DNA from: a virus | Taxonomy: Duplodnaviria; Caudoviricetes | IMG/VR virus record: IMGVR_UViG_3300020577_003313 | DNA: 64,000 bases | Direction: 5' to 3' (one strand) | In this document: positions 28,446-49,598 of the stretch, in pieces | How positions within the stretch are numbered: the first letter of the stretch is position 1 | Layout: each line of letters begins with the position of its first letter | Notes under the pieces: generated by a model | Database searches by the model: none | Seen by the model: only the letters and a program-made list of their open reading frames with translations | Told to the model about the DNA's origin: nothing | Position numbers and translations under genes: made by a program

Positions 28446-28475
28446 GAGCAGGCAGAAATGCCTGCTCATTTTTTT
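28446..28475 (+). terminator. Rho-independent terminator with GAAA tetraloop
   Basis: GAGCAGGCA-GAAA-TGCCTGCTC-ATTTTTTT. Confidence 0.85.
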
Positions 28476-30022: not shown

Positions 30023-30394
30023 ATGAGCACATCAATAGAAGATAAGATCAAAGCAGCTAAAACATGCGGTAGTCGTGTCATGAAGTCTAAGGTCTCCGGT
30101 ATTGAGGTTATCTATAGAAGCCTGACACGAAAGGAAATGCGAGACCTTCAGAGGAAGGTCGCTGACAAAACCGATTCTCTCAGGAAAGATAAAGAACGCC
30201 TCTCCGAAGCAGAGCTCCTCCGCCTAAAGGAGGAGGGAGAAGAAGCGATTGTCTTCAGGGGAGTACTTTCTCCAAACCTGGAATCTGAACTAGACTTGCT
30301 AGGTCTTCCGGCTGCATTTGTCCCCAATGTCGCGGAATATATTCTTAGTGCCTCCGGTTTCGGCGAAGAAATTACACCCCCAGAAGAACTATAA
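30023..30394 (+). CDS. tail assembly chaperone A
   Basis: IYRSLTRKE motif; between tube and tape measure genes. Confidence 0.65.
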   Translation: MSTSIEDKIKAAKTCGSRVMKSKVSGIEVIYRSLTRKEMRDLQRKVADKTDSLRKDKERLSEAELLRLKEEGEEAIVFRGVLSPNLESELDLLGLPAAFVPNVAEYILSASGFGEEITPPEEL

Positions 30395-30397
30395 GAT

Positions 30398-31021
30398 GTG
30401 AGCGAGACGAAAGAATTAGTCCATCCTGATGTAGGTTTTGGGCTGCTCGAAGCGCGACAACGTTTCGAGCGGCTTTTTTTGTTTAGACTGAAAGGTAAAA
30501 CCTTCATATTCAGACCACTCACAATAAGTGAGTGCGAGTCAATATTTAGTCTTGCAGACTATGTAGATAGCTTTGTAGTAGACGATTGGATCGTTACTAA
30601 AACTGCTATATCCGGAGATGTGAACTGGCTTCTAAACGAAGCCATGGCAGGGTATACTGCTAGCGTTGCTAGCTATATAATCAAAAAATCTACCCTGAAG
30701 GACGTGGAAGAAATTGCTATTCTCCTTGATAAGGAGAGAGAATCTAAATCAGCGATCTCGTGTGTCTTAGATTCTATGGTAATGCTGGCCGCTGGCCACA
30801 TCGTCAAAGATTCTAAGTCACTAACATACCGACAGCAAATTAAGTATGTAGCATTTGCTGAAGATGTACTATCCAAAAAATTGGAGCTAGCTAAGCCTTC
30901 TTCTCTACCAGAGAACAAGAAAAACAGAAAGCTTAGTCCAGAAGCTGCAAGAATACTCAGTAAAGAAGCTGCCGATAAACCAAACTTCGAGAAAGACAAC
31001 GAAGCACTTAGAAACGTGTAA
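30398..31021 (+). CDS. tail assembly chaperone B (paralogue of A)
   Basis: FIFRPLTISE motif; GTG start; same frame as chaperone A. Confidence 0.6.
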   Translation: MSETKELVHPDVGFGLLEARQRFERLFLFRLKGKTFIFRPLTISECESIFSLADYVDSFVVDDWIVTKTAISGDVNWLLNEAMAGYTASVASYIIKKSTLKDVEEIAILLDKERESKSAISCVLDSMVMLAAGHIVKDSKSLTYRQQIKYVAFAEDVLSKKLELAKPSSLPENKKNRKLSPEAARILSKEAADKPNFEKDNEALRNV

Positions 31022-34000
31022 TGGCTGATAACTACATCAACCAAAAAAGGCAGCAAGAACTAGCCAACCAACATAAGGACAACCTTTGGTGGTTGTACCC
31101 TATGGGAGCGGGACTGGGCGCTATTGGTCTTGGTGCTTTCATATACAAGTCTACAGCGAGCCAGGGCGGTACTGTAGTATCTAACTTAATGCACTTCCTA
31201 GGCAGACCTAGGGGCGTTGCTGTAAATGTAGATACCATATCTAATGCTGGCCCTAGTGCTCCATCTTCGGGAATGTCTGGAATCAGATCATTCCTCAGTG
31301 CCACATTCAATATCAGCAAGCAAAAAGTTGATCTAGGCCCAATAGATCTGATTAGAGATCTCGGGGGATCTCTAGAAATCATTGGCAATACTAGAGCCCC
31401 GGTTAGAGAAGCTGTTCAGAATAGAGTTACTGAAGCTATAAACAGACGTTATGTCAATAACGCCAATACCGCGAGTTTCTTTTCTCAGAACTTACAAAGA
31501 GTAACTGTAGGAGAAGTACTACAGAATAAAGACATTTGGTCTAACTTAATAGGGCTTCACCAGTGGAACGTTCTTTCTGCTGCTTCTTCTAGAAACTTAG
31601 TTAGTGCTTCAACTCCTCTAGATAGGAATATATTCAAGACTAGCACTGGATATCTGAGAGATACCAGAATTAGAAATATATTCATGAGGTCGGAGAATGG
31701 ACAGCTAAAGCCTAAGATCGACTTCTTCTCGCAGTTTAGCTCAATCAAGTCCTTAATGGGAGAAGGCAATAGATTTGCTGTACTCAGAAATACTCCAAAT
31801 GTAAAAGGAAACAGTTACTTTATAGACGGAAATGTCTATGCCTATACTAAAAGTACTGCTGGCAATTTTACAGAACATCTAGTAGAAACTGGTAAGATTC
31901 TCAGAAACAATGGAGATAGATTAGAACCTATAAGAGCTGCTAAAGAAGGCAGGCTAAAGTTTGATCTCAAGATAAGAACCTCACCGCTCGGAGGACTAGT
32001 TACTCAGTTCGAGAAAGCAACAGGAGTAGGAACTAGCTTTCAGAATAGATACACATTTGCGCAGAGATGGTTGGTCAACCCAGTAAAGAGACTAGCAGGA
32101 CTATCTTCTGGATTTGCCCAAGTTAGAAAGATACAAGTACTCAATTCTAACAGAATTGAAGGTATCATTGATGAGTTCGCGGGATCTACAACCCCAGAGA
32201 TTGTAAGACAAGGACCCAGAAAGACTATCATAGTTGGTGATCATGTAGATTTCAAGTCCCTTTCTGGATTTGAAAAGATAGCTACTATCTTTGGTCACAG
32301 TAACAAACATACTCTAATTAACTCAGGATCTGGTTCTTATTACGATTCTATCCTTACAGGCGGAGTAGAACCTCACCTACGGCCTAAAGATTGGTTTATT
32401 CCTAAGCCTCCAGAAGGAGGCTTCAAGATAGAGAGTACTAAGTCAGAGTTTTATACTGCTCCAGAAAGTAAGCTAATTCCTGGAATTACTTCCTTAAGAG
32501 ATTTCGCTAGCTACTCTATGTACAGAGTTAGCCACTTGGCTTCTGAAACTCTATTCGGAATCAGCTTTGCTCCTTCTGCATCGTTCTTGGGTAATGCAGC
32601 AAGACTTGCTGCTATACCAATGATATATGAAGCAGGTAGACAGTTAGTTAATTACGCAGATTATGGTCTAGAATCTACAATAGGATTCTCTCCTATAAAA
32701 GCTGCCGCGACTATCTATACTAAAATAAGAGAAGCTCAGCAGTCAGTTAGATCTAGCTTAGGTATTCAACAAGCGGCTGCTGAACTAGAAAAGAACTTCC
32801 CAGGATCTATGGATACGACTGGGTCGTTAATTGCTAGAAGTATTGTTGCTCCTGCTATAGCGTTTGCTTCTTTATCCAAGTTTACGTCAATAGGTAAAGC
32901 TGCTCTAGGAGCAGCGGGTGTATTTGGGTTAATAGGAGGATCTGATGTTCAGCAAACTCCTGAAGCTCTTGCTAAAGAATATGCAGGAGATATAAAAGTA
33001 CCAGTAAGAAAAGGTAGATGGTGGAGCATTGGCGGTACGCCATATGAAGGCGGAGATATAGAAAGATTTGACTACAGCTGGTACCACAAGCTAAAGAGCG
33101 ACTATAAGAACAAATCTATTTACGGATCTTCGGATGAGTACTGGAAGTACAACGCTAATGTGTTCGGTATTCCATTACCGACTCCTAGCAATTGGTTTGG
33201 ACTAAGAAACATTCTTAATCCTTACAGGGCCGAGATAATCAATAAAGATTCAAGACCTTACGAGGAGACCGCGCCAGCTCTCAGTGATATACCAATATTT
33301 GGTCCAGCACTAGGAGAAACAATAGGAAGACTAATGAAGCCTTCGGCTTCTAGAGTTCCGGGACCAGTAGCTGAGGTAGGTCTTGTACCAAGAGGTCTTA
33401 CAGCTTCTGATGCTAGATCTCTAGGTATTCCAGAGATGAACATCTCTGAGATAGATTTCTCCCCATCTCTTCTAGACAAAGTAAAGAAGATGGCGGATGT
33501 TGCATCCGAACCTATCGGTGTGTATAAGTTCGTGATGGAATATTTTGGTATACGGCTCGAACCTAAGAAAGAACAACTAGCTACTTCTTCTAATATAGAC
33601 TCAGTAGGGAAAGGTCTCTATGACATGGACCTTGGCGGCGGCCTAGGTCAGACCGAATTCCTAAGAAGATTCATGCTGAGCGATTACCATGATAGCTCGC
33701 AGACAGCTAGAATGGTTAACAGAATCAGAAATAATATGCCAGACTGGGTGCCCGGATCTGGCTCTGTCTTTGAAAAAGACAAAGATTACTACATAGACTA
33801 TGGTACCGGATCTCCGTTTGATAAGCTAACGCAAGGAGAAGCGAGATTACCTGGTAGAGGCTACGAAAGCTTAAATAAACTAGAGTCAGGACAAGAGCGA
33901 GTTTATAGCCCTGTAGACAGATTACTCATTCTATCAGACATAGCTCCATACTCAGAAGCATATAAGTATTACGACAATTTAGTTTCTAAGATGAAACTTG

Positions 34001-35226
34001 CCCCTGAGTGGCAAGAAAAAGTTAAACTAGCTAGGGAGTATAAGGAAAAATCTACTAGAATTGATAATAGGTTTCCTAGATATACAGATTCCCTTATTGC
34101 CATTAACGAAAGAATCAAAGACTCAGCAGCATATAAAACTACTAGAGGAATCTACGATACTATAACACATGATGTTCTTAGCGAGATCCCACTGTTTGGA
34201 AGTAAACTGTTCCCATTTAGGGACAGCTATGAACGATACAGAAAAGAGCACATAGAAGGTTCTCAGTTTGCTTCATGGTTTACTCCATGGGAAGACATAC
34301 AAAGACCAGCTCTAACTGATATGGCTTTGTCTAATCCATTAGTCGGAGCCCTGAAGGGAGGAACTATAGGATTCTTGCTAGGAGGACCAATGAGTTGGGC
34401 AAGTCCTCTGTCCATAGGACCTTCTACCTCTATTGTAGGAGGTATGATAGTTGGAGGAGCACTAAGCGCGGGTCGAATTGCTCTTGGAGTCTCAGATAAC
34501 TATGTTCCGGATCATGTTAGAGAAGAATCGAATACTAATATGTACTTAGATTCTCTATCTTACATAAAGAACAGAGCTCTCGAAGAGAGAGCTAATAGCA
34601 TGGGCGTTTCTTCTTCTGAGTTTAGAAAGAATGCTAGAAAGACTTTAGTCGGCGCAAATACTCCAATTATGTTAAGAGCTTCTCTTCCGACTTCTCTAGA
34701 TAAGAAATATTTTGATCAGTTCCTAGAGACTCCAGTCGGTAATAGAGAGCAACTCCTTGCAGGAGTGTCTCCTCATCTAGCTTATGCTCTAAACAAAGCA
34801 TGGGGCATGGGCTACAATAGCCAACAGTCTGCTGATACAGAAGCTGTAGCAAGAGTATCAGATGTAGGTGTTCCATCTTTTGATTCCTTAGCCTGGCATC
34901 CAATGGTAGACAATAGGTCAATGGGACTCAAGCTAGTCACCCACGGACTTAATGGAGTTAGCGATAACTACCACAGATATGGCTTCTATGAAGCCAACGA
35001 AGCTACCATAAGAACAAGAATGCCAGATCTTTGGAACGAATCGACTACTTTCGTAAGTCCTCCTAACTTTGCTAGCGCAAAGGAATACATACAGAACATT
35101 GGCCAAAATATTGATGGCAGGGTTACTACTTCTGTAACCTACACTCCATACAGAGCCAAATATACTCAGAAGCTGCAAATAGATAGAAGTAAAGATAATC
35201 TGCCGATTATTCAAGGTAGGTACTAG
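31021..35226 (+). CDS. tape measure protein
   Basis: 1401 aa after the chaperones; helical Ala/Gly-rich stretches and several hydrophobic segments. Confidence 0.7.
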   Translation: MADNYINQKRQQELANQHKDNLWWLYPMGAGLGAIGLGAFIYKSTASQGGTVVSNLMHFLGRPRGVAVNVDTISNAGPSAPSSGMSGIRSFLSATFNISKQKVDLGPIDLIRDLGGSLEIIGNTRAPVREAVQNRVTEAINRRYVNNANTASFFSQNLQRVTVGEVLQNKDIWSNLIGLHQWNVLSAASSRNLVSASTPLDRNIFKTSTGYLRDTRIRNIFMRSENGQLKPKIDFFSQFSSIKSLMGEGNRFAVLRNTPNVKGNSYFIDGNVYAYTKSTAGNFTEHLVETGKILRNNGDRLEPIRAAKEGRLKFDLKIRTSPLGGLVTQFEKATGVGTSFQNRYTFAQRWLVNPVKRLAGLSSGFAQVRKIQVLNSNRIEGIIDEFAGSTTPEIVRQGPRKTIIVGDHVDFKSLSGFEKIATIFGHSNKHTLINSGSGSYYDSILTGGVEPHLRPKDWFIPKPPEGGFKIESTKSEFYTAPESKLIPGITSLRDFASYSMYRVSHLASETLFGISFAPSASFLGNAARLAAIPMIYEAGRQLVNYADYGLESTIGFSPIKAAATIYTKIREAQQSVRSSLGIQQAAAELEKNFPGSMDTTGSLIARSIVAPAIAFASLSKFTSIGKAALGAAGVFGLIGGSDVQQTPEALAKEYAGDIKVPVRKGRWWSIGGTPYEGGDIERFDYSWYHKLKSDYKNKSIYGSSDEYWKYNANVFGIPLPTPSNWFGLRNILNPYRAEIINKDSRPYEETAPALSDIPIFGPALGETIGRLMKPSASRVPGPVAEVGLVPRGLTASDARSLGIPEMNISEIDFSPSLLDKVKKMADVASEPIGVYKFVMEYFGIRLEPKKEQLATSSNIDSVGKGLYDMDLGGGLGQTEFLRRFMLSDYHDSSQTARMVNRIRNNMPDWVPGSGSVFEKDKDYYIDYGTGSPFDKLTQGEARLPGRGYESLNKLESGQERVYSPVDRLLILSDIAPYSEAYKYYDNLVSKMKLAPEWQEKVKLAREYKEKSTRIDNRFPRYTDSLIAINERIKDSAAYKTTRGIYDTITHDVLSEIPLFGSKLFPFRDSYERYRKEHIEGSQFASWFTPWEDIQRPALTDMALSNPLVGALKGGTIGFLLGGPMSWASPLSIGPSTSIVGGMIVGGALSAGRIALGVSDNYVPDHVREESNTNMYLDSLSYIKNRALEERANSMGVSSSEFRKNARKTLVGANTPIMLRASLPTSLDKKYFDQFLETPVGNREQLLAGVSPHLAYALNKAWGMGYNSQQSADTEAVARVSDVGVPSFDSLAWHPMVDNRSMGLKLVTHGLNGVSDNYHRYGFYEANEATIRTRMPDLWNESTTFVSPPNFASAKEYIQNIGQNIDGRVTTSVTYTPYRAKYTQKLQIDRSKDNLPIIQGRY

Positions 35227-38200
35227 TGTCAAGCTCTTCAGATAACCCAATTGGTAATATTTTTGACAACGTGATGGGCTTTAGCAAGCCTAAAAACGTT
35301 AGCGAATACCTAGACAGAATGCGGGGTCTATCTGATGATAATACTCCGCTATCTTATCTATTACAGAGAAAAGACAAGTACAATATCTTCGGAAGAGCCA
35401 GAGGTACTGTCTGGCAGAGAACTGGCAGCAAAGCAGATCCTATTACTCCAAACAGTTACCAAGGATCTCCTTTTGAGGTTCTTTCTCCTAATAGATATGC
35501 CTCTCTTCCAGGAGTAAATCCTACAAGAGCTAGAATGTTGCAGAAGTATAACCTGCATCTAGCTCACTCTAGTTCTCTAAAGGAGATGTACTTACTTGGT
35601 ACAGATGGATGGCAGGGTGCTCTTCCAATACAAGAAGGCGGTCTTGTACATACAGGAGGCTCAGTAAGAGGAGCTTATAGGCTAAAGTACACTGATTCTT
35701 TAGGAGAAGAAACATATCACTCTCTATTCTATCAAAAACTAGATGAACTCATAGGTCGAAACTTACCAAGAGGAAAGTTCTTAAGAGAGTTCAGAAAGAT
35801 TAACGAAAGTGTAATTGGTACAGGTGTAAAAGGAAAACTAAAGCTCGGCGCCTTGTTAGGCAGCCCTGTAACAAGAAGAGGTAGTGATATAGGTTTATTT
35901 AACGCTCAGTCTCATGAGCTGAGAATGAGAGTAGTCGATAGACCTGGCGCTTCGGAAAGTGATATAATTTCCAAGTTCAAGCAGTTTAAGCAAGACACAA
36001 GAACTATCAATCTCTTAGTAAAGACTAAGGGCAATGTGATACCTGACTACCTACCGGATTCAAATGCCCTGACGGCATTTGACCAAGCTAGAAGAGGTAT
36101 AGAGTCATTCCATGAATGGCTCCCTTCTATGTACGCAAGGCTTGGAATTTCTGGTATGCATCAGCTTGCAAAAGCTGATTATTTAACTGGTCAGAAAGGT
36201 CTAGTACTACCAAGCAGTATAGGCAAGGAAGTATTTGGAAGCTTTGCTTCTATTAGAGAACAAACTAAAGGTTTGTTCCAGGAATACAATAGAGCATATT
36301 TCACGAAAGGCCAAAGAGAGCATATCTTTGCTACCCAAGGTAGCCCGATAGCGTCATTTATGACTGCTGCCGAAGATAGAAAATATGGTCCTTGGTTAAA
36401 GAGAAAAGCTAAGATAGCTATTGTAGACTTTAAGTCTATGCAGGATGAATTACTTACTGTAGGTGATTCAGGTTTTGCAATGACTTACAAAGGCTCTGTA
36501 AGAGCCGCTTCTCATCAATACATTGGTTCTTTAAGAATAGCTGCGCCAGATCAGCTAAAAATTAGTGCGGTAGAAGATCTACTAGGAGTCTCTAATCCTC
36601 GCGGGATAGTCAAGAGTGCTGTTCCAATTTCCTTTACTAAAAAGGAACTCGAAAGAGCAAGATGGAGTAGACGGTATGCGCAGAAAAATTCTCTGCCTAC
36701 TTTCTATAAGTGGGGCGACCTAACTGAAAAAGAAAGAGCACTTAGAGTTTTAGCGAGATCTAAATCTTCAGGAGTCCTAGATGCTGTAGCTAATCATGGA
36801 GGAAGTGTATTCGCTACTGTAACTCATAAGAGTGGTAAGCTATCCATAGACTTCCTGACTAGTAGATTGCTCAATCCTGGCACGGCAGAAATGTTGGTAG
36901 GCGGACTCCGTATGACCGGAACTACCACTACTGCTGACAGTCCTATACACACTGCTTTAAATACTCTAGCAGATAAGCACGGAGTGGAATTAGTAATATC
37001 CGGATCATCTGCGTCCAAGATGAGAGAGTCCAGTATTATTACCGGGTTCCTCCATGAGATGGAAGAACAAGGTAAACTAGATGAAGCAATAAAGATACTC
37101 GGAGGAAATAAAGGTAATACCACTTACGGAGACATTCCTGTAGTAAAAGATTTTGAATCTGCACACAGAGCCGCCCTACAGTATATCAAAGATTTAGAAA
37201 AGTCTAAGATAAAGAAAAACATAAAGATAGCAGCTAGAATGCGGCGCGGTAAGCAAATTTCTGCTGCCGTGTTTGGATTGCAAGATATTGCTCACTCTGT
37301 AAGTATATTCAATGCCGACATATCTCTAAGAGCAGATGCAACTCTAGATATGAACTCCGTCAATCCTGGAAGAATAACTCCAGGAAAGATGAAGACTATA
37401 GCTCTTGCTGCTAGATTAAGAGGACACAGTAATCCTTATAATGATGTTGTATTTAGAACTCTGGCAAATCACTGGAAGAGTTCTCACTTTGGATATGATC
37501 ACTCGACTATGGATTTCAGACTTGGTTCTGAAAGTCCTATCCTTAAGTGGACAGAGGCGATAAACGGTAGTCCTATCTCTCATAGAGTAGAGGACCTCGG
37601 TAGAAATCTAGTTATTTCTAGACACGGAAATAAAGTCTGGGCTAAGGGTGCAAATGCTAGTTACATGCTAAAGACTCCTAGACGCGAAGCGTTTAGAATG
37701 TCTGCTGATGGCATGAGCTATGACGAGCTGTCTAATACAATTCTAGACAGAAGATTTAGAAACAAGATGGCTTACCTAGATCTAGGAAAAGAGATGAACC
37801 TAGATCTGCTTGGACAAAACAAGTCTATTCGTTATCTGCCAATACCTCTGGAACTGTCTAGAGTAAGTGCGACTGACCATAGAGTCATTATGGATGATAA
37901 GCATCCATTTGCATCTTACATGGATCTTCTAAGAGAGTATTCTGCAAACGGAAGCGATACTCAGAAATTTGCTAAGCTTGCTAGAACAGCTACTGAAGGA
38001 ATGTACAAGTCCATACTTGGTAAAGATGGACTACTAGCTAAGACAAATATAATTCATCTTAAGAATTCTCTACCATTTAGACTAACAGCCCAAAGAGGAA
38101 ACTACTGGAACAAGGGCAATATGTTCTCGGCAGAGAACTTCTATGATATCCAGGTATCTAGAAAGCAGTTTTCTGCTGAAGCTCTTAAGAAGATGGGCTA

Positions 38201-39824
38201 TTCAGAGGAAGACGCCCGCAGACTAATAAAGTCTGCAAAAGTTAGAAAGTCTATGTATGTGATGCTAGGAGCAGATCCTGCTCAGCGTCCAGAACACATA
38301 GGCCAGATATGGAGATTAGTATTTAATGATTCTGATAATGTAGGAAAAGATTTCAGACTAACCGGAGCTACTCACCCAATAGCTCAGAGAATGTTGGAAA
38401 GAGACAACGACATGGATAAGTTGTTTCTGCACTTCATCGGCCACGAAGCTGAAAAAGCAGAAGGCATAGCAGTAAACAGACAGTTTGCCAGTATTATTGA
38501 GCAACAAAAGAAGGCAGTTGCTCCAGTACTTAACTTTGTAAAGAGCGAAATAGAGAAAGATTACGGAAAGTCTTCTTCTGGAAGGACAGCTATACTCAAA
38601 GATATAATGGAAGCCTACACAGGTCAAAAGACCTGGGCGTCTTTGGGATATACAATAACGAGACCAGACGAAAGATTAATTCATACTATCTTAACAGAAG
38701 GCGCGGAAGGTCTCAAAGCAAAAGGAATTTCTCTAGGAACTAAAGCTGGACTTAACGAATTCCATATTCAGCAAATGCGTGCTGCACTAGGAGGAGAAGC
38801 CTATGCTCCTGCTATGGTGCTAAGTCAGTATTTATACCAGGGCGGCGTTACTAAGGGTGGCGTTAAGGGAAGCTTGCTCGATCTTTCTAGAGCACTTATA
38901 GAAACTGCACAGAAAGCTAAGACTCAGGACCTAGATCTAGATGAAGCGTTTAGAACCGGAAAGCAGCACATTCTGGATTTTATTGAGGGTTCCGATAAGA
39001 ACAGACTATGGGCTACTACTGAGTATTTAGTAAATAAGATCAATAGACGTAGCTCCACTCCTCTAGTCCTTCAGGGACTAGCAGAAGGTTCTGCTGAAAT
39101 GGCTAATGCCAGAAAGGCAGTGTTTGACGAAGCTGCCGACCTAATGTCAAAGCTAATATTTGGTAGTGCCGCAATTCACGGGGCTATGGGCAGGGGTGTT
39201 AGCAATCTAACTGCTGTAATGGAAGATAGAGCGCCAACTGAAGGTCCTCTTCATCCTAGATCAGTATGGAATAGATTCATTGCCCCAGTACTTGGCTTTG
39301 GACAAGCTGGAACTCCTCCGCCCTCTAGTGAGGGCGCAGCTACTCAAGTACTAGGAACTGCTACTGGACCTACCGTAACTCCTGCCGAATCGCCCACGTC
39401 CAGATCTTTCAGATCTTCATTCTCTGAAATTGGAGAAAACCTATTAAGTAACTTTAAGAGTATATCTAAGAGCAAGTATCTTTGGCCTTCTGTTGGTGGC
39501 CTAGCAGCCATTGGTGCATATGGCTACATGTCTAGACCTGACCTTAGTTCTTCTGACATGCCGCCTCCAATGGATGTTTCTATGCCTACAGACAGAGGAC
39601 CGGATGTGCCGGATTATTCTAATGTAGCTAGAGTTAATAACTCTAGGCCAATAGCGCCTGCTTCTAGACTTAGAAAGCAATTTAACTATAACCAAGTCTC
39701 TACTAGCAGATTCCCAGGTAGATCTAGTTCAAATGTAATTATAGAAGACAGGACTAGCCCAACTAGTCCTTGGTTAATTAGACAACAAATGCAAAAAGTC
39801 AGCGAAAGCGACTTTGTGAGATAA
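35226..39824 (+). CDS. putative single-chain two-barrel (beta/beta'-like) virion RNA polymerase
   Basis: Ordered motifs KIAIVDF..GDSG, LLNPG, GVELVISG (beta-like), then YLPIP, ILGKDGLL, VMLGADP, HPIAQRMLERDNDMDKLFLH (beta'-like). Confidence 0.65.
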   Translation: MSSSSDNPIGNIFDNVMGFSKPKNVSEYLDRMRGLSDDNTPLSYLLQRKDKYNIFGRARGTVWQRTGSKADPITPNSYQGSPFEVLSPNRYASLPGVNPTRARMLQKYNLHLAHSSSLKEMYLLGTDGWQGALPIQEGGLVHTGGSVRGAYRLKYTDSLGEETYHSLFYQKLDELIGRNLPRGKFLREFRKINESVIGTGVKGKLKLGALLGSPVTRRGSDIGLFNAQSHELRMRVVDRPGASESDIISKFKQFKQDTRTINLLVKTKGNVIPDYLPDSNALTAFDQARRGIESFHEWLPSMYARLGISGMHQLAKADYLTGQKGLVLPSSIGKEVFGSFASIREQTKGLFQEYNRAYFTKGQREHIFATQGSPIASFMTAAEDRKYGPWLKRKAKIAIVDFKSMQDELLTVGDSGFAMTYKGSVRAASHQYIGSLRIAAPDQLKISAVEDLLGVSNPRGIVKSAVPISFTKKELERARWSRRYAQKNSLPTFYKWGDLTEKERALRVLARSKSSGVLDAVANHGGSVFATVTHKSGKLSIDFLTSRLLNPGTAEMLVGGLRMTGTTTTADSPIHTALNTLADKHGVELVISGSSASKMRESSIITGFLHEMEEQGKLDEAIKILGGNKGNTTYGDIPVVKDFESAHRAALQYIKDLEKSKIKKNIKIAARMRRGKQISAAVFGLQDIAHSVSIFNADISLRADATLDMNSVNPGRITPGKMKTIALAARLRGHSNPYNDVVFRTLANHWKSSHFGYDHSTMDFRLGSESPILKWTEAINGSPISHRVEDLGRNLVISRHGNKVWAKGANASYMLKTPRREAFRMSADGMSYDELSNTILDRRFRNKMAYLDLGKEMNLDLLGQNKSIRYLPIPLELSRVSATDHRVIMDDKHPFASYMDLLREYSANGSDTQKFAKLARTATEGMYKSILGKDGLLAKTNIIHLKNSLPFRLTAQRGNYWNKGNMFSAENFYDIQVSRKQFSAEALKKMGYSEEDARRLIKSAKVRKSMYVMLGADPAQRPEHIGQIWRLVFNDSDNVGKDFRLTGATHPIAQRMLERDNDMDKLFLHFIGHEAEKAEGIAVNRQFASIIEQQKKAVAPVLNFVKSEIEKDYGKSSSGRTAILKDIMEAYTGQKTWASLGYTITRPDERLIHTILTEGAEGLKAKGISLGTKAGLNEFHIQQMRAALGGEAYAPAMVLSQYLYQGGVTKGGVKGSLLDLSRALIETAQKAKTQDLDLDEAFRTGKQHILDFIEGSDKNRLWATTEYLVNKINRRSSTPLVLQGLAEGSAEMANARKAVFDEAADLMSKLIFGSAAIHGAMGRGVSNLTAVMEDRAPTEGPLHPRSVWNRFIAPVLGFGQAGTPPPSSEGAATQVLGTATGPTVTPAESPTSRSFRSSFSEIGENLLSNFKSISKSKYLWPSVGGLAAIGAYGYMSRPDLSSSDMPPPMDVSMPTDRGPDVPDYSNVARVNNSRPIAPASRLRKQFNYNQVSTSRFPGRSSSNVIIEDRTSPTSPWLIRQQMQKVSESDFVR

Positions 39825-39828
39825 TAAT

Positions 39829-40383
39829 ATGACAAGTGTAACAGTTGTAATTGGAAATCCCATCTCTACATATAGCTATGTGAACTACTATAGCGTTACA
39901 GCAATAAGATCCATAGTACTTGTTGTACAGAGACCTGTTGGTAGTTCTTATGTCAGAAAGCAACATAGCGTTACACTAGGTTACGGTAAGGTCATAACCC
40001 CGTTTAGAATAAGTACTTCTTCTAGAATACCTACTCTACAGAATGTACTTCATACATTTGGAGTATTCGTTCCCTTACCTCAGATTACAACTCTCAATAA
40101 CATAAGAGAGTCGTCCGCTGTAAACACTTCTCAAGTACTTCCTACTCCAAGAAATAACGATCCAGAGTCTCACATTGCAGTTGCAGAATTGATCTCTTCT
40201 GGAGGAAGCTTAGACGGGCTACCAGAAGGTAGCCGACAAATTATTGCCAAAACTGTTACGCCTAACGTAAAATCTTCGAAAGAAGTATCTGTTGTTATTT
40301 CAACACTAGCAAATAATTACGGCGCTAAGTCTAATCCTAGACAGATCACCACATCATATTCTAATAGAATCAGAAGATCATGA
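39829..40383 (+). CDS. Ser/Thr/Val-rich hypothetical protein
   Basis: 184-aa ORF, ATGA-coupled to the next gene. Confidence 0.65.
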   Translation: MTSVTVVIGNPISTYSYVNYYSVTAIRSIVLVVQRPVGSSYVRKQHSVTLGYGKVITPFRISTSSRIPTLQNVLHTFGVFVPLPQITTLNNIRESSAVNTSQVLPTPRNNDPESHIAVAELISSGGSLDGLPEGSRQIIAKTVTPNVKSSKEVSVVISTLANNYGAKSNPRQITTSYSNRIRRS

Positions 40384-43300
40384 CGTCAACTAGCCTACAG
40401 ATTGGTCCATATACTTTTCAACATTCTGTACAAAGTATTGTTCTCCAAGAACAGAAAGCTCTGAATGCGGCGGAAACTACCAGATCTAGTAAGAACCTTA
40501 TTATTGATACTGGAAAAACTTCCAGTAAGGCAGTTATTCAGTTTCTGTTTTCTGGTATTAACGAGATAAATACTGACGCTAGAAGATTAATAGCATTATT
40601 TAGATGCTGTCCAGTGATCTCATGTAAAAATGAGATGATCTCTAACTCTTGGAAGCCTCTGACAAATCAAACAAAGAAAGATACTGATATCTTACCAAAA
40701 GATACAGCTGCTGTAGATAGAACAGAATATAACCAATTTGTTCCTGTTGGGCTAGAAGAAATATCAATAAGTTCGGTTCCAGATTTGCCATTTTGTATTT
40801 ACCTTACTCTTACTCTATCTAAGATAGATGTTTCAAACGCTACGTCTGGAGATATTCTGTATCAGGACGAGAACCCCGCGAATAGATGGACAGATCCAGC
40901 AAAAGCTTTCTGGCTAAAGAAATGGGTAGACACTATTCTAGAAGATCAAAAAATTCCTATCTTAATCAGAGAGGACTTCGATAATATATCCTTTGAATGG
41001 TTTGGCAAAGATATCTTTGGGGATAGGGTCACGTCAAATAATATCCCTGGTAGAATTAACCTAGAACAAGACAGCCCATATTTAAAAATACAAGCAGAGA
41101 CCTGTACCATAAGAAATAACTTTGTGTACAATACCCTTATCGGTAAGGGCTCTCCTTCTCCTCAGCATATGGGTTCTACCAGTAGGTATTACTCATTAGA
41201 TATCCTATCTAATGGTCAGACTGACTCTGGAGAGTCAGAATACAAGATGCTTCAAACTTTTAAAGAAGCATCCGACGAGATGGCGAGATCTAAAAATAGA
41301 GAGAACAGAATCATTGGATGGGCAGTCACAAGTCCTATTTCAAAACTTTTAGCAGTATCGTCTTATCCAATAAGATACCGGTCAGGTATCTTTGTTCCTA
41401 TAACTGTAAGCCAAGAGACTTCATCGGAGCCATTTGTAAAGACCATATCTATTGATATGATCGAAAACAATGTTGATTTCTTTCAGCAAAATGAAATCCT
41501 CCTTACTGAAGGAGGAACTGATTATGATGATCTACTAGCTTACTACAAGAGACTTACTGAAAAAGAATATCAGTTCAGAAAGAACAAGCAAACGCCGGGC
41601 TATGTAGATTCAGCATTGAGCGGAACATCAATACAGAGTCAAGAAGAATATGACGCGTGGTCTCTATTCTGGCCAATCTCTTCCCCAGGATATACTTGGG
41701 TAAAGAACACAGATATCTTCGGTGTTCTCTCTAAAGAAACTCTAAAGGCAGTGTTCTTAGATCCGGAGTACGATACTAAGGAAAGACTAGCAATAGCGTT
41801 AAACCAAGCTATTTTAGTTGTAGGAGAGACTCTGTCTGGTTCAAGACAAGTACCTATTTGGACAAAGACAAAAATAAATCTAGACCAGATAAGATCTCTA
41901 GTAGCAGGTTCTGATAGTGATGAGAAAGATCTAGCATCTATATTCATAGCTATTAAAGATCTAGTGTCTACTAAGATGATACTCGGAGCAGATGAAACTG
42001 CTATAAACTTTCTATCCCAGAAAATATTCCTGTCTTTCTTAGGAGATTTTGACGGAGTGTTGGATGTCAACACAGAATCCGGATCTGTGGTTCAGATCCT
42101 AGCAGGATCTGTTTATCAATTTCATCCAGATTTCTTAAGTGCTTTATTCAGAGTACTAGTAGAGAGAAGAAAGCCTCCTCAGTTTAAGATACCAGCATAC
42201 AGCATTGATGCTGTAAACACTAGCTTCTTTAAGCTAATTGCAGCATTTGCAAAAGACAACAATAAATTACCGATCTACAAAGAGCCAGAACCGGGTACTT
42301 CTAATGACAACGCAAAAGCATTAAGTGTTGTCAAAGCAAATAATAGATGCCTTTACCCTGATCTGCTATTGCCGACATATGGCGAGCTCTACGAGGATAA
42401 GTGGACTCTGTTCGCTCCTACCTATAATGATTTTGGTATTATCAATAGAAAGCCTAGCAGTGATTCTGTTATTGCAGACAACCCTCAAAATGAAATAGCA
42501 GTATCTATTGACGACTATGTTTCCCCAGCTGCTTGGTTCTTTAATAAGAAATTCAAAGAAGGATTGGATAAGCTTCTATCCTTTGTAGATAAGGATGCCA
42601 GTGCTGCCGCTGCTGTGGGCCATAACCTAGTAATATCCATACCTTTTGATACTGATGAGATCGAAGAACTAGAAGAACTTCTGCAAAAGAAAGAAGAAGA
42701 TAACCCGACCTACAGAGCAGCTTCACTACCCACAATCATAGAAAGATCTGAATCAATAATTAGGAATGCTATCCAGCGCCAACTGGATAATCCTAATCAA
42801 AAGTTCTACGATAGCTTAAAACAGCTAGAAATAATTGATGCTAACGAAGCTCTAAGACAGCAGTATCTTTCTAGCTCCTCCAAAACTGTATCAATTCTAC
42901 AGTCTAACGCAGGTAGTATTACAGTAAAAAGAAAGTTAACAGCTCCTGGTGTCGCTGGAGCTATTGTCAGAGTCTTAAAAGAGTACAAGCTTTTATCCAC
43001 TAGTGATAGACTGCCCAGACTCGATGCCTACGAAGAGTATAGATCCGCCGACAAGACATCAGAATTCAAATTCATTAGAGGTTTAGACGAGAACACTCAA
43101 CAGAGTGTGAAGTCTATGATTGACCAGCTTCCTGATACATATGAAAGTATGGTCAAACTATTCCCTGCTTGTAAGGTGTACTTAGTAGATAAAAGAGGAA
43201 CTGATATCGTCGGAGACGATAGTTTCTTTACAGTTAATCCAATTGTGTCTATAGATATTACACTAGACAAAGAAGAGGCAGATCTGGCAGTCATTAGGGT

Positions 43301-46300
43301 AGCTGATCCTATGTATATTCTGCAAAGAGATTACTTCCCTACTGGCGGCATCAATACAATAAAAGGTCAAGACGGAGCTACTTTAAGTAGAACAGTACTA
43401 GGTTCTTTAAAGGGTAATAATTTTGATCACTATCTAAAAAGATTTAAGCTAGCCCAAGGTAGAAGAATACAAATAAAGATGGGCTATGATTCTAATCCCA
43501 AAAATCTGAAAACAGTTTTCACTGGCAGAATAGCTGAAATAGAACCCGGAGATGTAGTTACAATTGTTGCCCAAGGATGGAAGGCCGAGCTCATGTCTAG
43601 ACAAGTAGCATTTGCTAACTCAAATGCTAAATCTTGGGGAGCTAAAGATCTTGCTGTACAAGCTATCACAGCAGCGAATCCAGACGGATTCGGAGACTTC
43701 TATGCTCAAAGAGATACCAATTTTATCTTAAGAAATCTACCTAGTGCAGATGCAGAAGAGCTAGCTAGACAAGTTCTAAGAGTACAAGAAGGTTCCATAA
43801 CAGAACACGGTGAAAGAGGATTCTTATCTTCTGCAAAGAACTCAGTAGTATCGTTCTTTGGTGGTACAGAGTATGATAAAGAAAATCCAGGTCTAGACAC
43901 AAGACTGAAGAATATCTGGTATCCAGAAATACCAGAGGTTAGTAACATTCTAGGATTGAGGTCTTTCTTTCAGATACTTCCTTCTCAGGTAAATGATAGC
44001 TGGGTTGTGCCTTTACAGCCAGCATGGGAAGTCCTTAAAGAGGCAGCCAGACATACTTGGAACTATATAGTTCAAGTTGTTCCATATGATGGAGAAGCTA
44101 CTATATTCTTCGGTCATCCGGATCAGCCTTACTACTACACGAAAGGTAACAAAATCTCTAGAACCTATTATGACAAATTCCTAGAAGGATTTGTCAAGTC
44201 CGGAGAAGATGTAAATAACTTAGTTTCTGGATTCTTCTCTAGTCCTTTCTATGGAGAAGGATATGTTCCTAATATAGATAACTTACAAAAAATTAATAAT
44301 GCCATCACTAACTCTTATGACAATGCTGAACTAGGATTCGCATCTGATAAGAAGATAAACAGTAAGTACGATTTGGGATCCTTCATAGAAAATCCAGAAG
44401 TCTTGGATGACTTTTATCAAGAACTGACTAAGTCTAGAAGATCGGCAGTTACATTTAGAGAAGCAAACAGATCCTATAAGATGCTAGAGCATCTGCTCAA
44501 TAGTAATCTATTTGGTAATTTATTTGTAAAGCTCGCGCTTAAATCTAAAGCTCCCTTAGCTGCTTATCAAGATTTAAAATCTACATACCTAAAGTCAAGA
44601 ACAGATACGATAATTGCCAAGCTATTCTTTGAAATGCCAGAGATAGAAGCGCAGGCTTATTTCTGGAGAAACATAGGCAGAGATATGGAAACACTGATGT
44701 CTCCTAGTGTAAATTTAGGAGATCTACAAGACATATCAAATGGAATGTCTGTTGACCTTTCTATAAAAGAAGTTATCATAAATGAGATCAACTCCATATA
44801 CAAGTCTGTAAGTAGTGCGTGGTATTATGACGTCGGTCGCACTCCTACTGTAGTTGTTAAAGATATTGACAATCTTAGAAACTTAGTTGTCTCAAAAGCA
44901 ACAAATCTTTACTCTAGATACTACACTAATGAACTATATGCGGCCAGCATTAAGTCTCTAAATGAAAAAATTGCCGAATGGGGCAATAACAAGATTACAG
45001 GAGAATCCACTAAGCAACTACAGTCTGTGGTCAGCTCAATAAGAGAATCCATAAAGAAGCTTAATCCTAAATTCTCTTCGATAAAGGAAGATATCCAATC
45101 TGAAACTCTGGTAGCAAAGCTAAGAATCTTTGTCTACTACCTAGCGGAATACCTAAAAAATGATTCTCAAGGAAGACTAGAGGCTGACAAGATATCAACA
45201 CTAGCTATATCTTTACCTCCCACAATGCAGGTATTTAGAGTGTTCCATAATATTGATAGCGATCACGATATTGTTTCAAATAATATCGTAGCTAGTACAA
45301 GAGATATGTGGAATACTGTTGTCATTGAGTATCCAGAAAGAGATGCGGCAACAGACAAGGTAGACGATGAAACAGCTCTATACAATAAGACTGAGTTCTA
45401 TAGCGGCATCAAGTGGGTATACTGGCCTAAGAATGAAGTCTCCGGTGTAGTAGGACTACAGTTTCATCCAGGTCTAACACTTGCAAATAAAAAGATTAGA
45501 GTATTTACTGAGATAAACTGCCAGGGCGGAGAGCTAGCTGCAAAGCTAGCTTGTAATAGATTGGCAGAAGGTCTTAGAAAGATGTACCGAGGAACCCTTA
45601 CCATAAAGGGCAGACACATAAAGCCGTATGACAGAATCATTTTAAACGATGATTACACGAATATGGTCGGCCCAGTAGAGGTTGAGTCAGTAGTCCATCA
45701 CTGGAATCTAGACACCGGATGGGTATCAAATATACAGCCGGAGGCTGTGTGTGATTCTAATGCGGGCGCAGCTGTAGTACAGACTGCTGCTATGGAAGCT
45801 CTATTTGATAAGGTATTCAGAACTACAGATTTCCTCACTGACCTAGTAACCTATTGTATAATTGTAGCCACTTTAGGTGGCGGCACTCCAATAGTTGGAG
45901 GTCAGTTTGCTGTTAAGAAAGGTCTGACCGGAGCTATAAAGAAATGGTGGGAAAAGGGAACTAAGGATTATATCTATGATAGGCTAATTGCTGGAAAAGA
46001 TAACATCCTTAAACTTAAGGACATAATAGCAGGACAATACAAAGATCCGCTGAATGCTCTCAGAACTATAATTAGAACATTCATCCAGGGACCAGGTGGT
46101 AAAATATTTGCTAGCCAGGTTATATCTGGAGCAGTAGATACACTAACTGATACAGCATTTAAGCTTACAGTATGTACATCTTTCGTTATGAATGCTCAGA
46201 AAGCTGAGCAATTACCAGTACTCCTTTCTCCTCTTTTATTTAATGGAATGCCGTTCCTTGCAGGATTGGAAACTGAAGATCCGATCTGGGCTGTATTCTT

Positions 46301-46397
46301 TAATGGAACTTTCTGGTCGTTAAAGGATATGCAATTAGGAGCGGCGGAATTCGTTAACGAAATAGGATTCGGAGAACTTCTTAAGGAAATCAAATGA
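40380..46397 (+). CDS. large baseplate hub-like protein (gp27/VgrG-like core with insertions)
   Basis: GRRIQIKMGY...VFTGRIAEI...VTIVAQG and YRGTLTIKG...IKPYDRI...VESVVHHW hub patterns. Confidence 0.7.
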   Translation: MTSTSLQIGPYTFQHSVQSIVLQEQKALNAAETTRSSKNLIIDTGKTSSKAVIQFLFSGINEINTDARRLIALFRCCPVISCKNEMISNSWKPLTNQTKKDTDILPKDTAAVDRTEYNQFVPVGLEEISISSVPDLPFCIYLTLTLSKIDVSNATSGDILYQDENPANRWTDPAKAFWLKKWVDTILEDQKIPILIREDFDNISFEWFGKDIFGDRVTSNNIPGRINLEQDSPYLKIQAETCTIRNNFVYNTLIGKGSPSPQHMGSTSRYYSLDILSNGQTDSGESEYKMLQTFKEASDEMARSKNRENRIIGWAVTSPISKLLAVSSYPIRYRSGIFVPITVSQETSSEPFVKTISIDMIENNVDFFQQNEILLTEGGTDYDDLLAYYKRLTEKEYQFRKNKQTPGYVDSALSGTSIQSQEEYDAWSLFWPISSPGYTWVKNTDIFGVLSKETLKAVFLDPEYDTKERLAIALNQAILVVGETLSGSRQVPIWTKTKINLDQIRSLVAGSDSDEKDLASIFIAIKDLVSTKMILGADETAINFLSQKIFLSFLGDFDGVLDVNTESGSVVQILAGSVYQFHPDFLSALFRVLVERRKPPQFKIPAYSIDAVNTSFFKLIAAFAKDNNKLPIYKEPEPGTSNDNAKALSVVKANNRCLYPDLLLPTYGELYEDKWTLFAPTYNDFGIINRKPSSDSVIADNPQNEIAVSIDDYVSPAAWFFNKKFKEGLDKLLSFVDKDASAAAAVGHNLVISIPFDTDEIEELEELLQKKEEDNPTYRAASLPTIIERSESIIRNAIQRQLDNPNQKFYDSLKQLEIIDANEALRQQYLSSSSKTVSILQSNAGSITVKRKLTAPGVAGAIVRVLKEYKLLSTSDRLPRLDAYEEYRSADKTSEFKFIRGLDENTQQSVKSMIDQLPDTYESMVKLFPACKVYLVDKRGTDIVGDDSFFTVNPIVSIDITLDKEEADLAVIRVADPMYILQRDYFPTGGINTIKGQDGATLSRTVLGSLKGNNFDHYLKRFKLAQGRRIQIKMGYDSNPKNLKTVFTGRIAEIEPGDVVTIVAQGWKAELMSRQVAFANSNAKSWGAKDLAVQAITAANPDGFGDFYAQRDTNFILRNLPSADAEELARQVLRVQEGSITEHGERGFLSSAKNSVVSFFGGTEYDKENPGLDTRLKNIWYPEIPEVSNILGLRSFFQILPSQVNDSWVVPLQPAWEVLKEAARHTWNYIVQVVPYDGEATIFFGHPDQPYYYTKGNKISRTYYDKFLEGFVKSGEDVNNLVSGFFSSPFYGEGYVPNIDNLQKINNAITNSYDNAELGFASDKKINSKYDLGSFIENPEVLDDFYQELTKSRRSAVTFREANRSYKMLEHLLNSNLFGNLFVKLALKSKAPLAAYQDLKSTYLKSRTDTIIAKLFFEMPEIEAQAYFWRNIGRDMETLMSPSVNLGDLQDISNGMSVDLSIKEVIINEINSIYKSVSSAWYYDVGRTPTVVVKDIDNLRNLVVSKATNLYSRYYTNELYAASIKSLNEKIAEWGNNKITGESTKQLQSVVSSIRESIKKLNPKFSSIKEDIQSETLVAKLRIFVYYLAEYLKNDSQGRLEADKISTLAISLPPTMQVFRVFHNIDSDHDIVSNNIVASTRDMWNTVVIEYPERDAATDKVDDETALYNKTEFYSGIKWVYWPKNEVSGVVGLQFHPGLTLANKKIRVFTEINCQGGELAAKLACNRLAEGLRKMYRGTLTIKGRHIKPYDRIILNDDYTNMVGPVEVESVVHHWNLDTGWVSNIQPEAVCDSNAGAAVVQTAAMEALFDKVFRTTDFLTDLVTYCIIVATLGGGTPIVGGQFAVKKGLTGAIKKWWEKGTKDYIYDRLIAGKDNILKLKDIIAGQYKDPLNALRTIIRTFIQGPGGKIFASQVISGAVDTLTDTAFKLTVCTSFVMNAQKAEQLPVLLSPLLFNGMPFLAGLETEDPIWAVFFNGTFWSLKDMQLGAAEFVNEIGFGELLKEIK

Positions 46398-49120: not shown

Positions 49121-49590
49121 TGTTCAAATTTTTCCAAGCACAGTATAACCCACAAGATCTTACAGGAACTGTAGGTGGTTCTATATCTACTTTGGAACTT
49201 AGTGGATATCTCGGAGAACTGTTTACATATACAGTAGCTCCACCAGAAGAGTACACTGGTGCATATTACCAGTATAGAAAGATCTTTGTGATGAACGATT
49301 ACGAATCATCTTCATCTAATACAAGACTGTGGCTGGATGCTCAGCAGCATCCTGATCAAATATCAATAGCTGTTCAGACTGGAGGAACTCCTACTGTAGC
49401 TAATGCTTCCACAGAACCAAACGGCATAACAACATGGGCACAGCCTTCTAACTTCTCAGAAGGAGTAGAGATTGGAACCATGACATCTAGCTCCTACACT
49501 GGAGTTTGGCTCAGACAAAAACTGAGCGAAGTAACTGAAGCAGATCCATACTCGTCTCTAAGAATCTATATAGGCGGGATCATTAACTAA
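49120..49590 (+). CDS. virion structural protein, hypothetical
   Basis: YRKIFVMN...YTGVWLRQ beta-sandwich pattern; TAATG-coupled. Confidence 0.7.
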   Translation: MFKFFQAQYNPQDLTGTVGGSISTLELSGYLGELFTYTVAPPEEYTGAYYQYRKIFVMNDYESSSSNTRLWLDAQQHPDQISIAVQTGGTPTVANASTEPNGITTWAQPSNFSEGVEIGTMTSSSYTGVWLRQKLSEVTEADPYSSLRIYIGGIIN

Positions 49591-49598
49591 GGTAACAC

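Follow-up and report, generated by a model that had tools for sequence, protein, structure and literature searches.

What is the function of a giant gene of no recognised family in the tail module of a large phage? We address this question for P0001, an open reading frame (ORF) in a 64,000-nucleotide stretch (the window) of IMG/VR virus record IMGVR_UViG_3300020577_003313 (Duplodnaviria; Caudoviricetes). The phage is uncultured and contractile-tailed, on a contig of ~175 kb from a JGI metagenome, and the P0001 gene sits among its tail genes. The original prediction, made from the sequence, took P0001 to be a highly diverged single-chain two-barrel RNA polymerase (RNAP) that is encoded next to the tape measure gene and delivered through the tail. 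The enzymatic part of this proposal is now supported by a confident structural model, by fold matches to RNAPs only and by three invariant aspartates. The model supports P0001 as a single-chain two-barrel RNAP in which a beta-like half is followed by a beta'-like half, and we class it as a new family of two-barrel RNAP in a new structural setting. The coordinates of its features and of the neighbouring genes are collected in Table 1.

The structure of residues 280-1240 was predicted with AlphaFold2 from a 46-sequence alignment. The model is confident, with a mean predicted local distance difference test score (pLDDT) of 88.1 and a predicted template modelling score (pTM) of 0.87, and its core is a compact mixed alpha/beta globule of ~960 residues. 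When the model was compared with the Protein Data Bank (PDB) by Foldseek, the top 50 matches were all beta', Rpb1 or RPA1 chains, with a probability of 0.9-1.0 nearly throughout and E values of only ~4e-3. An exhaustive VIA search with the same model, scored by Z, also placed only RNAPs at the top ranks. The best match is QDE-1 (Z 12.2 over 385 residues, spanning model residues 11-948), followed by P74-26 gp62 (Z 10.3); P23-45 gp96 matches ~300-325 residues across the whole model (Z 8.3-8.6), and crAss gp66 is found at Z 5.3. The N-terminal half (model residues 16-438) resembles beta chains of the non-virion RNAPs of AR9 (Z 10.2) and phiKZ (Z 8.9), RPB2 of African swine fever virus (Z 8.9), A135 of Pol I (Z 8.4), plastid beta (Z 8.4) and bacterial beta (Z 7.8), and in beta/Rpb2 chains the matched part is the barrel-bearing C-terminal half. 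The whole C-terminal half (model residues 487-961) resembles vaccinia Rpo147 (Z 9.4), the largest subunits of Pol I, II and III (Z 8.7-9.3) and beta' of M. tuberculosis (Z 7.6).

Isolated domains of the double-psi beta-barrel (DPBB) type match model residues 668-792 with Z scores of 6.2-7.5, among them the designed barrels 7dww (Z 7.2) and 7dvc (Z 6.2) and the VAT-N and CDC48-N domains. This segment bears the candidate catalytic triad, which the model places in the loop preceding the last barrel strand. Directly past the barrel the model has a 31-residue helix, in which Q1094 is nearly invariant, and it is plausible that this helix is the bridge helix. The neighbours of P0001 in the ESM Atlas are proteins from phages and bacteria in which PF00562 and PF00623 are fused, and those in BFVD are giant phage proteins, followed by RNAP subunits of nucleocytoplasmic large DNA viruses. 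A structure prediction had been proposed as a check on the RNAP assignment, with a lack of double-psi barrels as the outcome that would speak against it; the confident model instead has matches to both barrel-bearing halves.

The segment HPIAQRMLERDNDMDKLFLHF of P0001 lies at residues 1050-1070 (nucleotides 38373-38435) as originally described. The other segments likened to beta' are also in place (IRYLPIPLELSR at residue 868, ILGKDGLL at 930 and YVMLGADPAQR at 1011), as are those likened to beta in the N-terminal half (AKIAIVDF at 395, GDSG at 413, SIDFLTSRLLNPG at 540 and GVELVISGSSASKMR at 586), and the latter coincide with conserved blocks and predicted strands. The bare DxDxD string in P0001 is not significant, because chance would give ~0.23 occurrences in a protein of such length and aspartate content. 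It is the conservation in the aligned sequences, not the motif itself, that lifts the observation above chance. R1059, D1060, D1062 and D1064 are invariant across alignments of 43 and 46 sequences, in which the mean column identity is 17-22%, so that none of the homologues has lost any of the three aspartates, a loss that had been named as evidence against the proposal. P872, R952, P1018, Q1020 and H1024 are invariant as well, and G935 is nearly so. These residues are the centres of the beta'-like segments RYLP.P (868-873), GK.GLL (932-937), ADP.QR.EH (1016-1024) and ERDxDRD; further motifs of the same half are GY (1141-1142) and Q.L.QGGV.KG (1201-1211). The beta-like half has the conserved motifs G.RR.T (R562), GVD..EF.KM (K598) and R.DFM.DIN (R702, D704, D708 and N710), and the nearly invariant R562 and K598 lie within predicted strands and turns. 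A second DxDxD, at residue 1235, was rejected, as the motif there is not conserved.

The best local profile alignment pairs D1060, D1062 and D1064 with D460, D462 and D464 in the NADFDGD loop of E. coli beta', but it is not significant alone (E 0.037). Similarly, the triad loop gives the top local alignment to the ADTDGD loop of orf99 of phage 0305phi8-36, a PF05183 RNAP, at an E value (0.065) that is not significant alone. The catalytic loop is non-canonical, with R and D/M/N/K residues in place of the usual F and G.

P0001 belongs to a diverse family with a membership of at least 46, and has ~45 metagenomic homologues at 21-36% identity, 43 of them at E<=1e-10. When 1.84 billion representative proteins were searched exhaustively with HMMER, 42 homologues were returned, all at E<=7e-14 and 40 of them at <1e-30, and most are ~1500 residues long. 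The start codon is GTG, which shares its G with the upstream TAG stop (a 1-base overlap), and it is confirmed by the conservation of the N-terminus M..DNPI in the family, where N7 and P8 are nearly invariant. P0001 has no match in Pfam at E<=0.1 (including PF00623, PF00562 and PF05183) and none in PHROGs, and a phmmer search of PDB sequences returned nothing. No family member was found by tblastn of P0001 and its homologue P0009 against 50,697 phage records, a word-indexed protein search with P0001 recovered the query alone, and a search of viral contigs for related loci found none. A profile of the beta' part detected no RNAP among PDB sequences, giving a spurious dystrophin match alone, and hidden Markov models (HMMs) of the family and PF00623 found nothing in MaMV-DC, ME3, the Moorella phage or 0305phi8-36. 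The motif strings of the family are also absent from the supplementary files of a paper that compiles 23 two-barrel RNAP families. We regard the family as recognised by no annotation library and as undescribed in the literature searched. The lack of a match to curated models is usual for diverged phage RNAPs such as gp96, gp64 and gp66 (PMC10770324).

Where, then, does this polymerase-like gene sit? The window covers the structural half of the phage genome, in which PHROG matches mark the large terminase (6780), portal (10647), major capsid protein (15222), tail sheath (26140, E 2e-53), two tube-like genes (27730 and 28458) and the baseplate wedge (47525 and 47966). Between the tube and baseplate genes lie three giant ORFs, g1401, P0001 and g2005, and a 184-residue gene precedes g2005. 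Judged by sheath and terminase, the nearest sequenced phages are Moorella phage MTATph1, Bacillus phage 0305phi8-36 and its relatives, and Acinetobacter phage ME3, at 25-38% identity. In every relative examined, including the most divergent, the order is sheath, tube, tube paralogue, a ~240-residue gene, two small chaperone-like genes, a gene of ~1400-1560 residues, the polymerase, a gene of 136-221 residues, a gene of ~2000 residues and the baseplate.

The original prediction took the gene upstream of P0001 to be the tape measure, and this is not borne out. An HMM of the g1401 family matches gp145 of 0305phi8-36 (E 4.6e-89), Moorella CDS26 (E 6e-76) and ME3_35 (E 1.6e-42). In 0305phi8-36 the tape-measure role was given tentatively to orf146 on the basis of tail length, and the chaperonin pair orf143/144 is one gene removed from it (PMC2147016); gp145, gp146 and gp147 are annotated in the sequence record as virion proteins by mass spectrometry. 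Since orf146 lies between gp145 and gp147, g1401 is not the assigned tape measure, and it is P0001 that occupies the tape-measure slot, after the chaperone-like pair (one gene removed) and before the hub gene. The latter, g2005, matches phrog_20474 'endolysin' at residues 1617-1796 (E 1e-32) and, by BLASTP, the 'baseplate hub protein' ME3_37 (E 7e-10), which is annotated as a gp147 homologue. P0001 does not look like a ruler itself, as residues 280-1240 are predicted to form a compact enzyme core and not an extended helical structure, and it is a separate ORF, not part of a tape-measure fusion.

The junction between g1401 and P0001 varies in the relatives, as a gap of 2 nt or an overlap of either 1 nt or 4 nt, which indicates translational coupling and not a conserved frameshift fusion. 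A fusion or frameshift of the two genes was rejected on this variable geometry and on the conserved N-terminus of P0001, and paralogy of the two was rejected at BLASTP E>1. The genes from g1401 to g2005 follow one another without intergenic space, and no intrinsic terminator was found between g1401, P0001, g184 and g2005. P0001 thus lies within the tail operon, with a stop/start overlap upstream and no terminator before the hub gene, an arrangement kept in all the relatives examined.

Table 1. Positions in the window of the features of P0001 and of the genes around it
Feature	Position	Strand	Basis
P0001, single-chain two-barrel RNA polymerase-like protein (1532 residues)	35226..39824	+	ORF, homologues, kept neighbourhood
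N-terminal region, residues 1-280; site of DEDD exonuclease insertion in five homologues	35226..36065	+	Conservation, PF00929
beta/Rpb2-like half, residues ~295-717	36108..37376	+	Matches of model residues 16-438, conservation
beta'/Rpb1-like half, residues ~766-1240	37521..38945	+	Matches of model residues 487-961, Foldseek
beta'-type double-psi beta-barrel, residues ~947-1071	38064..38438	+	Model residues 668-792 against isolated DPBBs
DNDMD, candidate Mg-binding triad D1060/D1062/D1064; family consensus ERDxDRD	38403..38417	+	Invariance, model, local alignments
31-residue helix directly past the catalytic barrel, residues 1081-1111 (model 802-832)	38466..38558	+	Model
Gly/Ala-rich hydrophobic segment, residues 1418-1435	39477..39530	+	Sequence; in family consensus
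Conserved Pro-rich C-terminal tail ending ..SDF.Y	39531..39821	+	P1454, D1456, P1459, S1528 and D1529 nearly invariant
g1401, upstream gene, stop overlaps P0001 start; 0305phi8-36 gp145 orthologue	31021..35226	+	HMM
Two small genes (123 and 207 residues) in place of split tail-chaperone pair orf143/144	30023..31021	+	Synteny only
g184, small conserved gene between polymerase and hub genes	39829..40383	+	Gene of 136-221 residues there in every relative examined
g2005, giant hub/lysin, counterpart of gp147 and ME3_37	40380..46397	+	PHROG, BLASTP

Among the known polymerases, gp96 of Thermus phage P23-45 (8H2M/8H2N; Chaban et al. 2024, PMC10770324) has several features in common with P0001. Both are single-chain two-barrel RNAPs that have a DxDxD loop and whose genes take the tape-measure position of the tail module; both have hydrophobic C-terminal parts, and the proposed role, transcription of the first-entering genes, is the same. 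In contrast to the stand-alone P0001 of a contractile-tailed phage, gp96 forms the N-terminal part of a tape measure of 5002 residues in a non-contractile siphovirus. There is no detectable sequence similarity between the two (the P0001 motif is ERDxDRD, that of gp96 DFDGD), no metallopeptidase domain was found in P0001, and gp96 is flat and clampless, whereas P0001 apparently has a clamp-like region. Activity and virion location have been shown for gp96, and are proposed here for P0001. QDE-1 (7Y7P), the best structural match, aligns with both halves and has the same order of a beta-like and then a beta'-like half in one chain. It differs in that it is a eukaryotic RNA interference enzyme, and P0001 has no match to PF05183, the family of the QDE-1/YonO clade. 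YonO and orf99 are non-virion enzymes, the genes of which lie outside structural modules. Like P0001, gp66 of crAss phi14:2 (6VR4) is a giant single-chain two-barrel RNAP encoded among structural genes, and it is packaged in the virion; it differs in being a weak match, in coming from a podovirus, in its 2180 residues and DFDID motif, and in lacking sequence similarity to P0001.

The occupants of the same slot in the sequenced relatives are of more than one kind. In Acinetobacter phage vB_AbaM_ME3, the 'hypothetical protein' ME3_36 (KU935715, 33172-37983) sits between ME3_35, a homologue of gp145, and the hub ME3_37; its start falls on the ME3_35 stop codon, and it has 1603 residues and a single DxDxD (GGDHDQD at 1217). 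A BFVD model of 802 residues, A0A172Q021_2, resembles the P0001 model at E 1.4e-4; from its length, exactly half of 1603, we infer that it is half of ME3_36. The best local profile alignment of the P0001 family with ME3_36 pairs P.Q...DxDxD at equal spacing, at an E value of 0.43 that is not significant, and ME3_36 is undetected by the HMM of the P0001 family. It is not described as a polymerase in the literature searched. A second ME3 protein of 798 residues (A0A172Q0S6) has a weak RNAP-like match (E 9.7e-3). The 'hypothetical tape measure protein' gp146 of 0305phi8-36 lies between the orthologues gp145 and gp147, has a hydrophobic segment near its C-terminus and is a virion protein by mass spectrometry; it differs from P0001 in its 2537 residues, its lack of a DxDxD and its lack of detectable similarity, and is probably a true ruler or a different cargo. 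Moorella CDS27 likewise shows no similarity to P0001 and has no DxDxD, and hhalign returned no match for the P0001 family in the giant syntenic proteins of 0305phi8-36 and of the Moorella phage. Two lineages or more thus have an RNAP-like protein in this slot, and two others a different occupant.

Outside this group of phages, Microcystis phage MaMV-DC (KF356199) has two giant 'hypothetical' ORFs on the minus strand (49224-54257 and 66652-77334) with beta'-type loops, GDADGD in ORF65L and GDFDGD in ORF82L (3560 residues), neither of which is in a tail operon. A BFVD model of the second half of ORF65L resembles the P0001 model at E 2e-5.

Both ends of P0001 extend beyond the modelled core. The ~290 residues that follow it comprise helical segments, a hydrophobic stretch, a Pro-rich segment and the terminal ..SDF.Y, and the Gly/Ala-rich hydrophobic stretch is a possible anchor in the membrane or the tail lumen. 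Comparable hydrophobic segments lie ~100-150 residues from the C-termini of ME3_36 and gp146; their alignments with P0001 are weak and not significant, and HMMs of the P0001 N- and C-termini gave, against gp146, ME3_36 and CDS27, non-significant matches to the hydrophobic segment alone. At the N-terminus, five longer homologues carry a DEDD exonuclease of the RNase_T/DnaQ type (PF00929), located at residues 62-228 or 223-408 of P0005, P0021, P0043, P0045 and P0046. This domain is closest to epsilon-like genes of Flavobacterium phages, and in a tblastn search P0043 gave matches through the exonuclease domain alone. The presence of the domain in these five sequences argues for a nucleic-acid role of the family, and its recurrent fusion hints at proofreading or RNA processing. 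To our knowledge, neither is known for phage RNAPs.

Taken together, we consider it probable, with appreciable room for doubt, that P0001 is a two-barrel RNAP that is built into the virion, is ejected on contraction and transcribes the first-entering genes. The gene would be expressed late, within the tail operon and translationally coupled to the gp145-like gene, and its product would be built into the virion where related phages place the putative tape measure, beside the gp27-like hub/lysin. Contraction of the sheath would eject P0001 together with other tail-lumen and hub proteins, and the hydrophobic segment near its C-terminus may serve as its anchor at the entry pore. The triad D1060/D1062/D1064 in the beta'-type barrel would bind the catalytic Mg ions, and P0001 would transcribe those phage genes that enter first, independently of the host polymerase. 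It might also assist in pulling in the DNA, on the model put forward for P23-45 gp96 (PMC10770324). A polymerase that is made with the late structural genes and is useful for early transcription must be packaged, and precedents for a packaged polymerase from late structural genes are found in N4, crAss phi14:2 and P23-45 (PMC10770324). More tentatively, and with the odds somewhat against it, a whole lineage of large myoviruses may have swapped or supplemented its tape-measure-slot protein with a stand-alone tail or baseplate RNAP that is fired by contraction, anchored at the pore by its C-terminal hydrophobic tail and couples genome entry to host-independent early transcription, some members having a built-in 3'-5' exonuclease and ME3 being a diverged example.

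The different parts of this proposal draw on different evidence. The RNAP core and its triad are supported by structure prediction, fold matches and conservation; packaging in the virion and delivery through the tail are proposed from gene position and from the mass-spectrometry evidence on the syntenic proteins of another phage. Several observations weigh against the proposal as a whole. No profile method ties the P0001 family to any RNAP family at a significant E value, and the pair of conserved basic residues that should face the triad from the beta-type barrel is not placed, R562 and K598 being candidates. P0001 has no detectable sequence similarity to gp146, and its assignment to the virion is by position. 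It has apparently kept a clamp-like N-terminal beta' region (a weak match, Z 4.8), unlike gp96, and its globular core of ~960 residues could not pass the tail tube in folded form. P0001 may instead be packaged in the head and ejected unfolded, as are the enzymes of N4 and crAss.

The bulk of the folded core and the positional nature of the packaging argument also suit an active RNAP that stays out of the virion and acts late in infection, or on middle and late genes, the more so as many phages encode non-virion two-barrel RNAPs (YonO, P23-45 gp64 and 0305phi8-36 orf99). We consider this unlikely, for in all the relatives examined the gene is strictly embedded, and translationally coupled, between genes whose orthologues encode proven virion proteins, the conserved termini, hydrophobic segment and Pro-rich tail would be superfluous in a soluble enzyme, and co-expression with low-copy tail proteins would be an odd regulation for a middle/late transcriptase. 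The template and product of the enzyme are a separate matter, as QDE-1 as best match of the model leaves its specificity wide. P0001 could be a QDE-1-like RNA-dependent or dual polymerase, a primase-like enzyme that initiates replication or a PolD-like DNA polymerase: QDE-1 (Z 12.2) acts as both an RNA-dependent RNA polymerase (RdRP) and a DNA-dependent one, RDR2 is matched at Z 8.8, and the DnaQ-type 3'-5' exonuclease of some homologues is more typical of DNA polymerases. However, PolD is not among the VIA matches listed, the characterised phage members YonO, gp96 and gp64 are DNA-dependent RNAPs (PMC10770324), and a phage with a double-stranded DNA genome does not evidently need an RdRP, an argument made for orf99 (PMC2147016), so that we judge a specificity of this kind to be a decidedly improbable outcome.

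It is also conceivable that P0001 is a structural occupant of the tape-measure slot with an RNAP-derived fold that has lost catalysis. Its place in the slot assigned to the tape measure in 0305phi8-36, its non-canonical loop and the lack of any DxDxD in the syntenic giants of 0305phi8-36 and the Moorella phage are in keeping with such a loss, but the aspartates and about a dozen core residues are invariant at ~22% identity, which points to selection on the active site, and a globular core of 960 residues is no ruler; we hold this to be very improbable. That the resemblance to RNAPs is a chance motif in an unrelated giant protein can be set aside almost entirely: a DxDxD is expected 0.23 times and the sequence-profile comparisons to RNAPs are all non-significant, but chance does not account for a confident model, RNAP-only fold matches of both halves and an invariant motif. 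The reading of P0001 as a virion-borne two-barrel RNAP is accordingly the one that we prefer.

The g1401 protein has three Gly-rich hydrophobic segments (residues ~25-42, 600-640 and 1105-1155), and numerous motifs of aromatic residues and Pro are invariant in it, among them DYSWYHKL and FGIPLPTPSN; an AlphaFold2 model of its residues 202-1401 from 5 sequences was uninformative (pLDDT 37), and an ESM Atlas feature search returned no usable match. No family match was found for the two chaperone-like genes, nor in Pfam or PHROGs for g184, the protein of which is rich in Ser, Thr and Val. A 15-bp GC-rich hairpin with a T-run lies on the plus strand at 30440-30475, ~40 nt inside the second chaperone-like gene, and a GCTGC...GCAGC-T5-7 hairpin is found at the same place in three of four relatives (L003 ~5240, L006 ~5100 and L020 ~5008). 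Its role may be attenuation, with reduced expression of the low-copy giants downstream, the polymerase included. Attenuation usually sits just after a high-copy tail gene, and a terminator-like hairpin (9 bp, 6 of them GC, with a T-run) lies directly past the first tube gene at 28446-28467 on the plus strand. Elsewhere in the window, an ORF of 1717 residues directly after the capsid gene (16674-21827) has a weak match to the PcRGLX-like RIFT-barrel family PF19501 (E 1e-3, below the cut-off) and may encode a head-associated glycan-degrading appendage. Positions 1-2000 have a GC content of 0.50, compared with ~0.40 in the remaining window, and carry small ORFs on both strands; they may mark a genome end or the boundary of an early region.

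Virion-delivered two-barrel RNAPs are known from a handful of phages, namely crAss-like podoviruses, the siphovirus P23-45 and phiKZ-like phages with head-packaged enzymes. The P0001 family adds members that are fixed in the tail module of large myoviruses akin to 0305phi8-36, ME3 and Moorella MTATph1, and a concrete function is thereby offered for a 'hypothetical' giant gene, with the cultured phage ME3 as a candidate relative open to bench study. If P0001 is packaged, a polymerase carried in the tail would no longer be a trait peculiar to a single thermophilic siphovirus, and one would have to ask how a contractile tail can store and expel an enzyme of 170 kDa.

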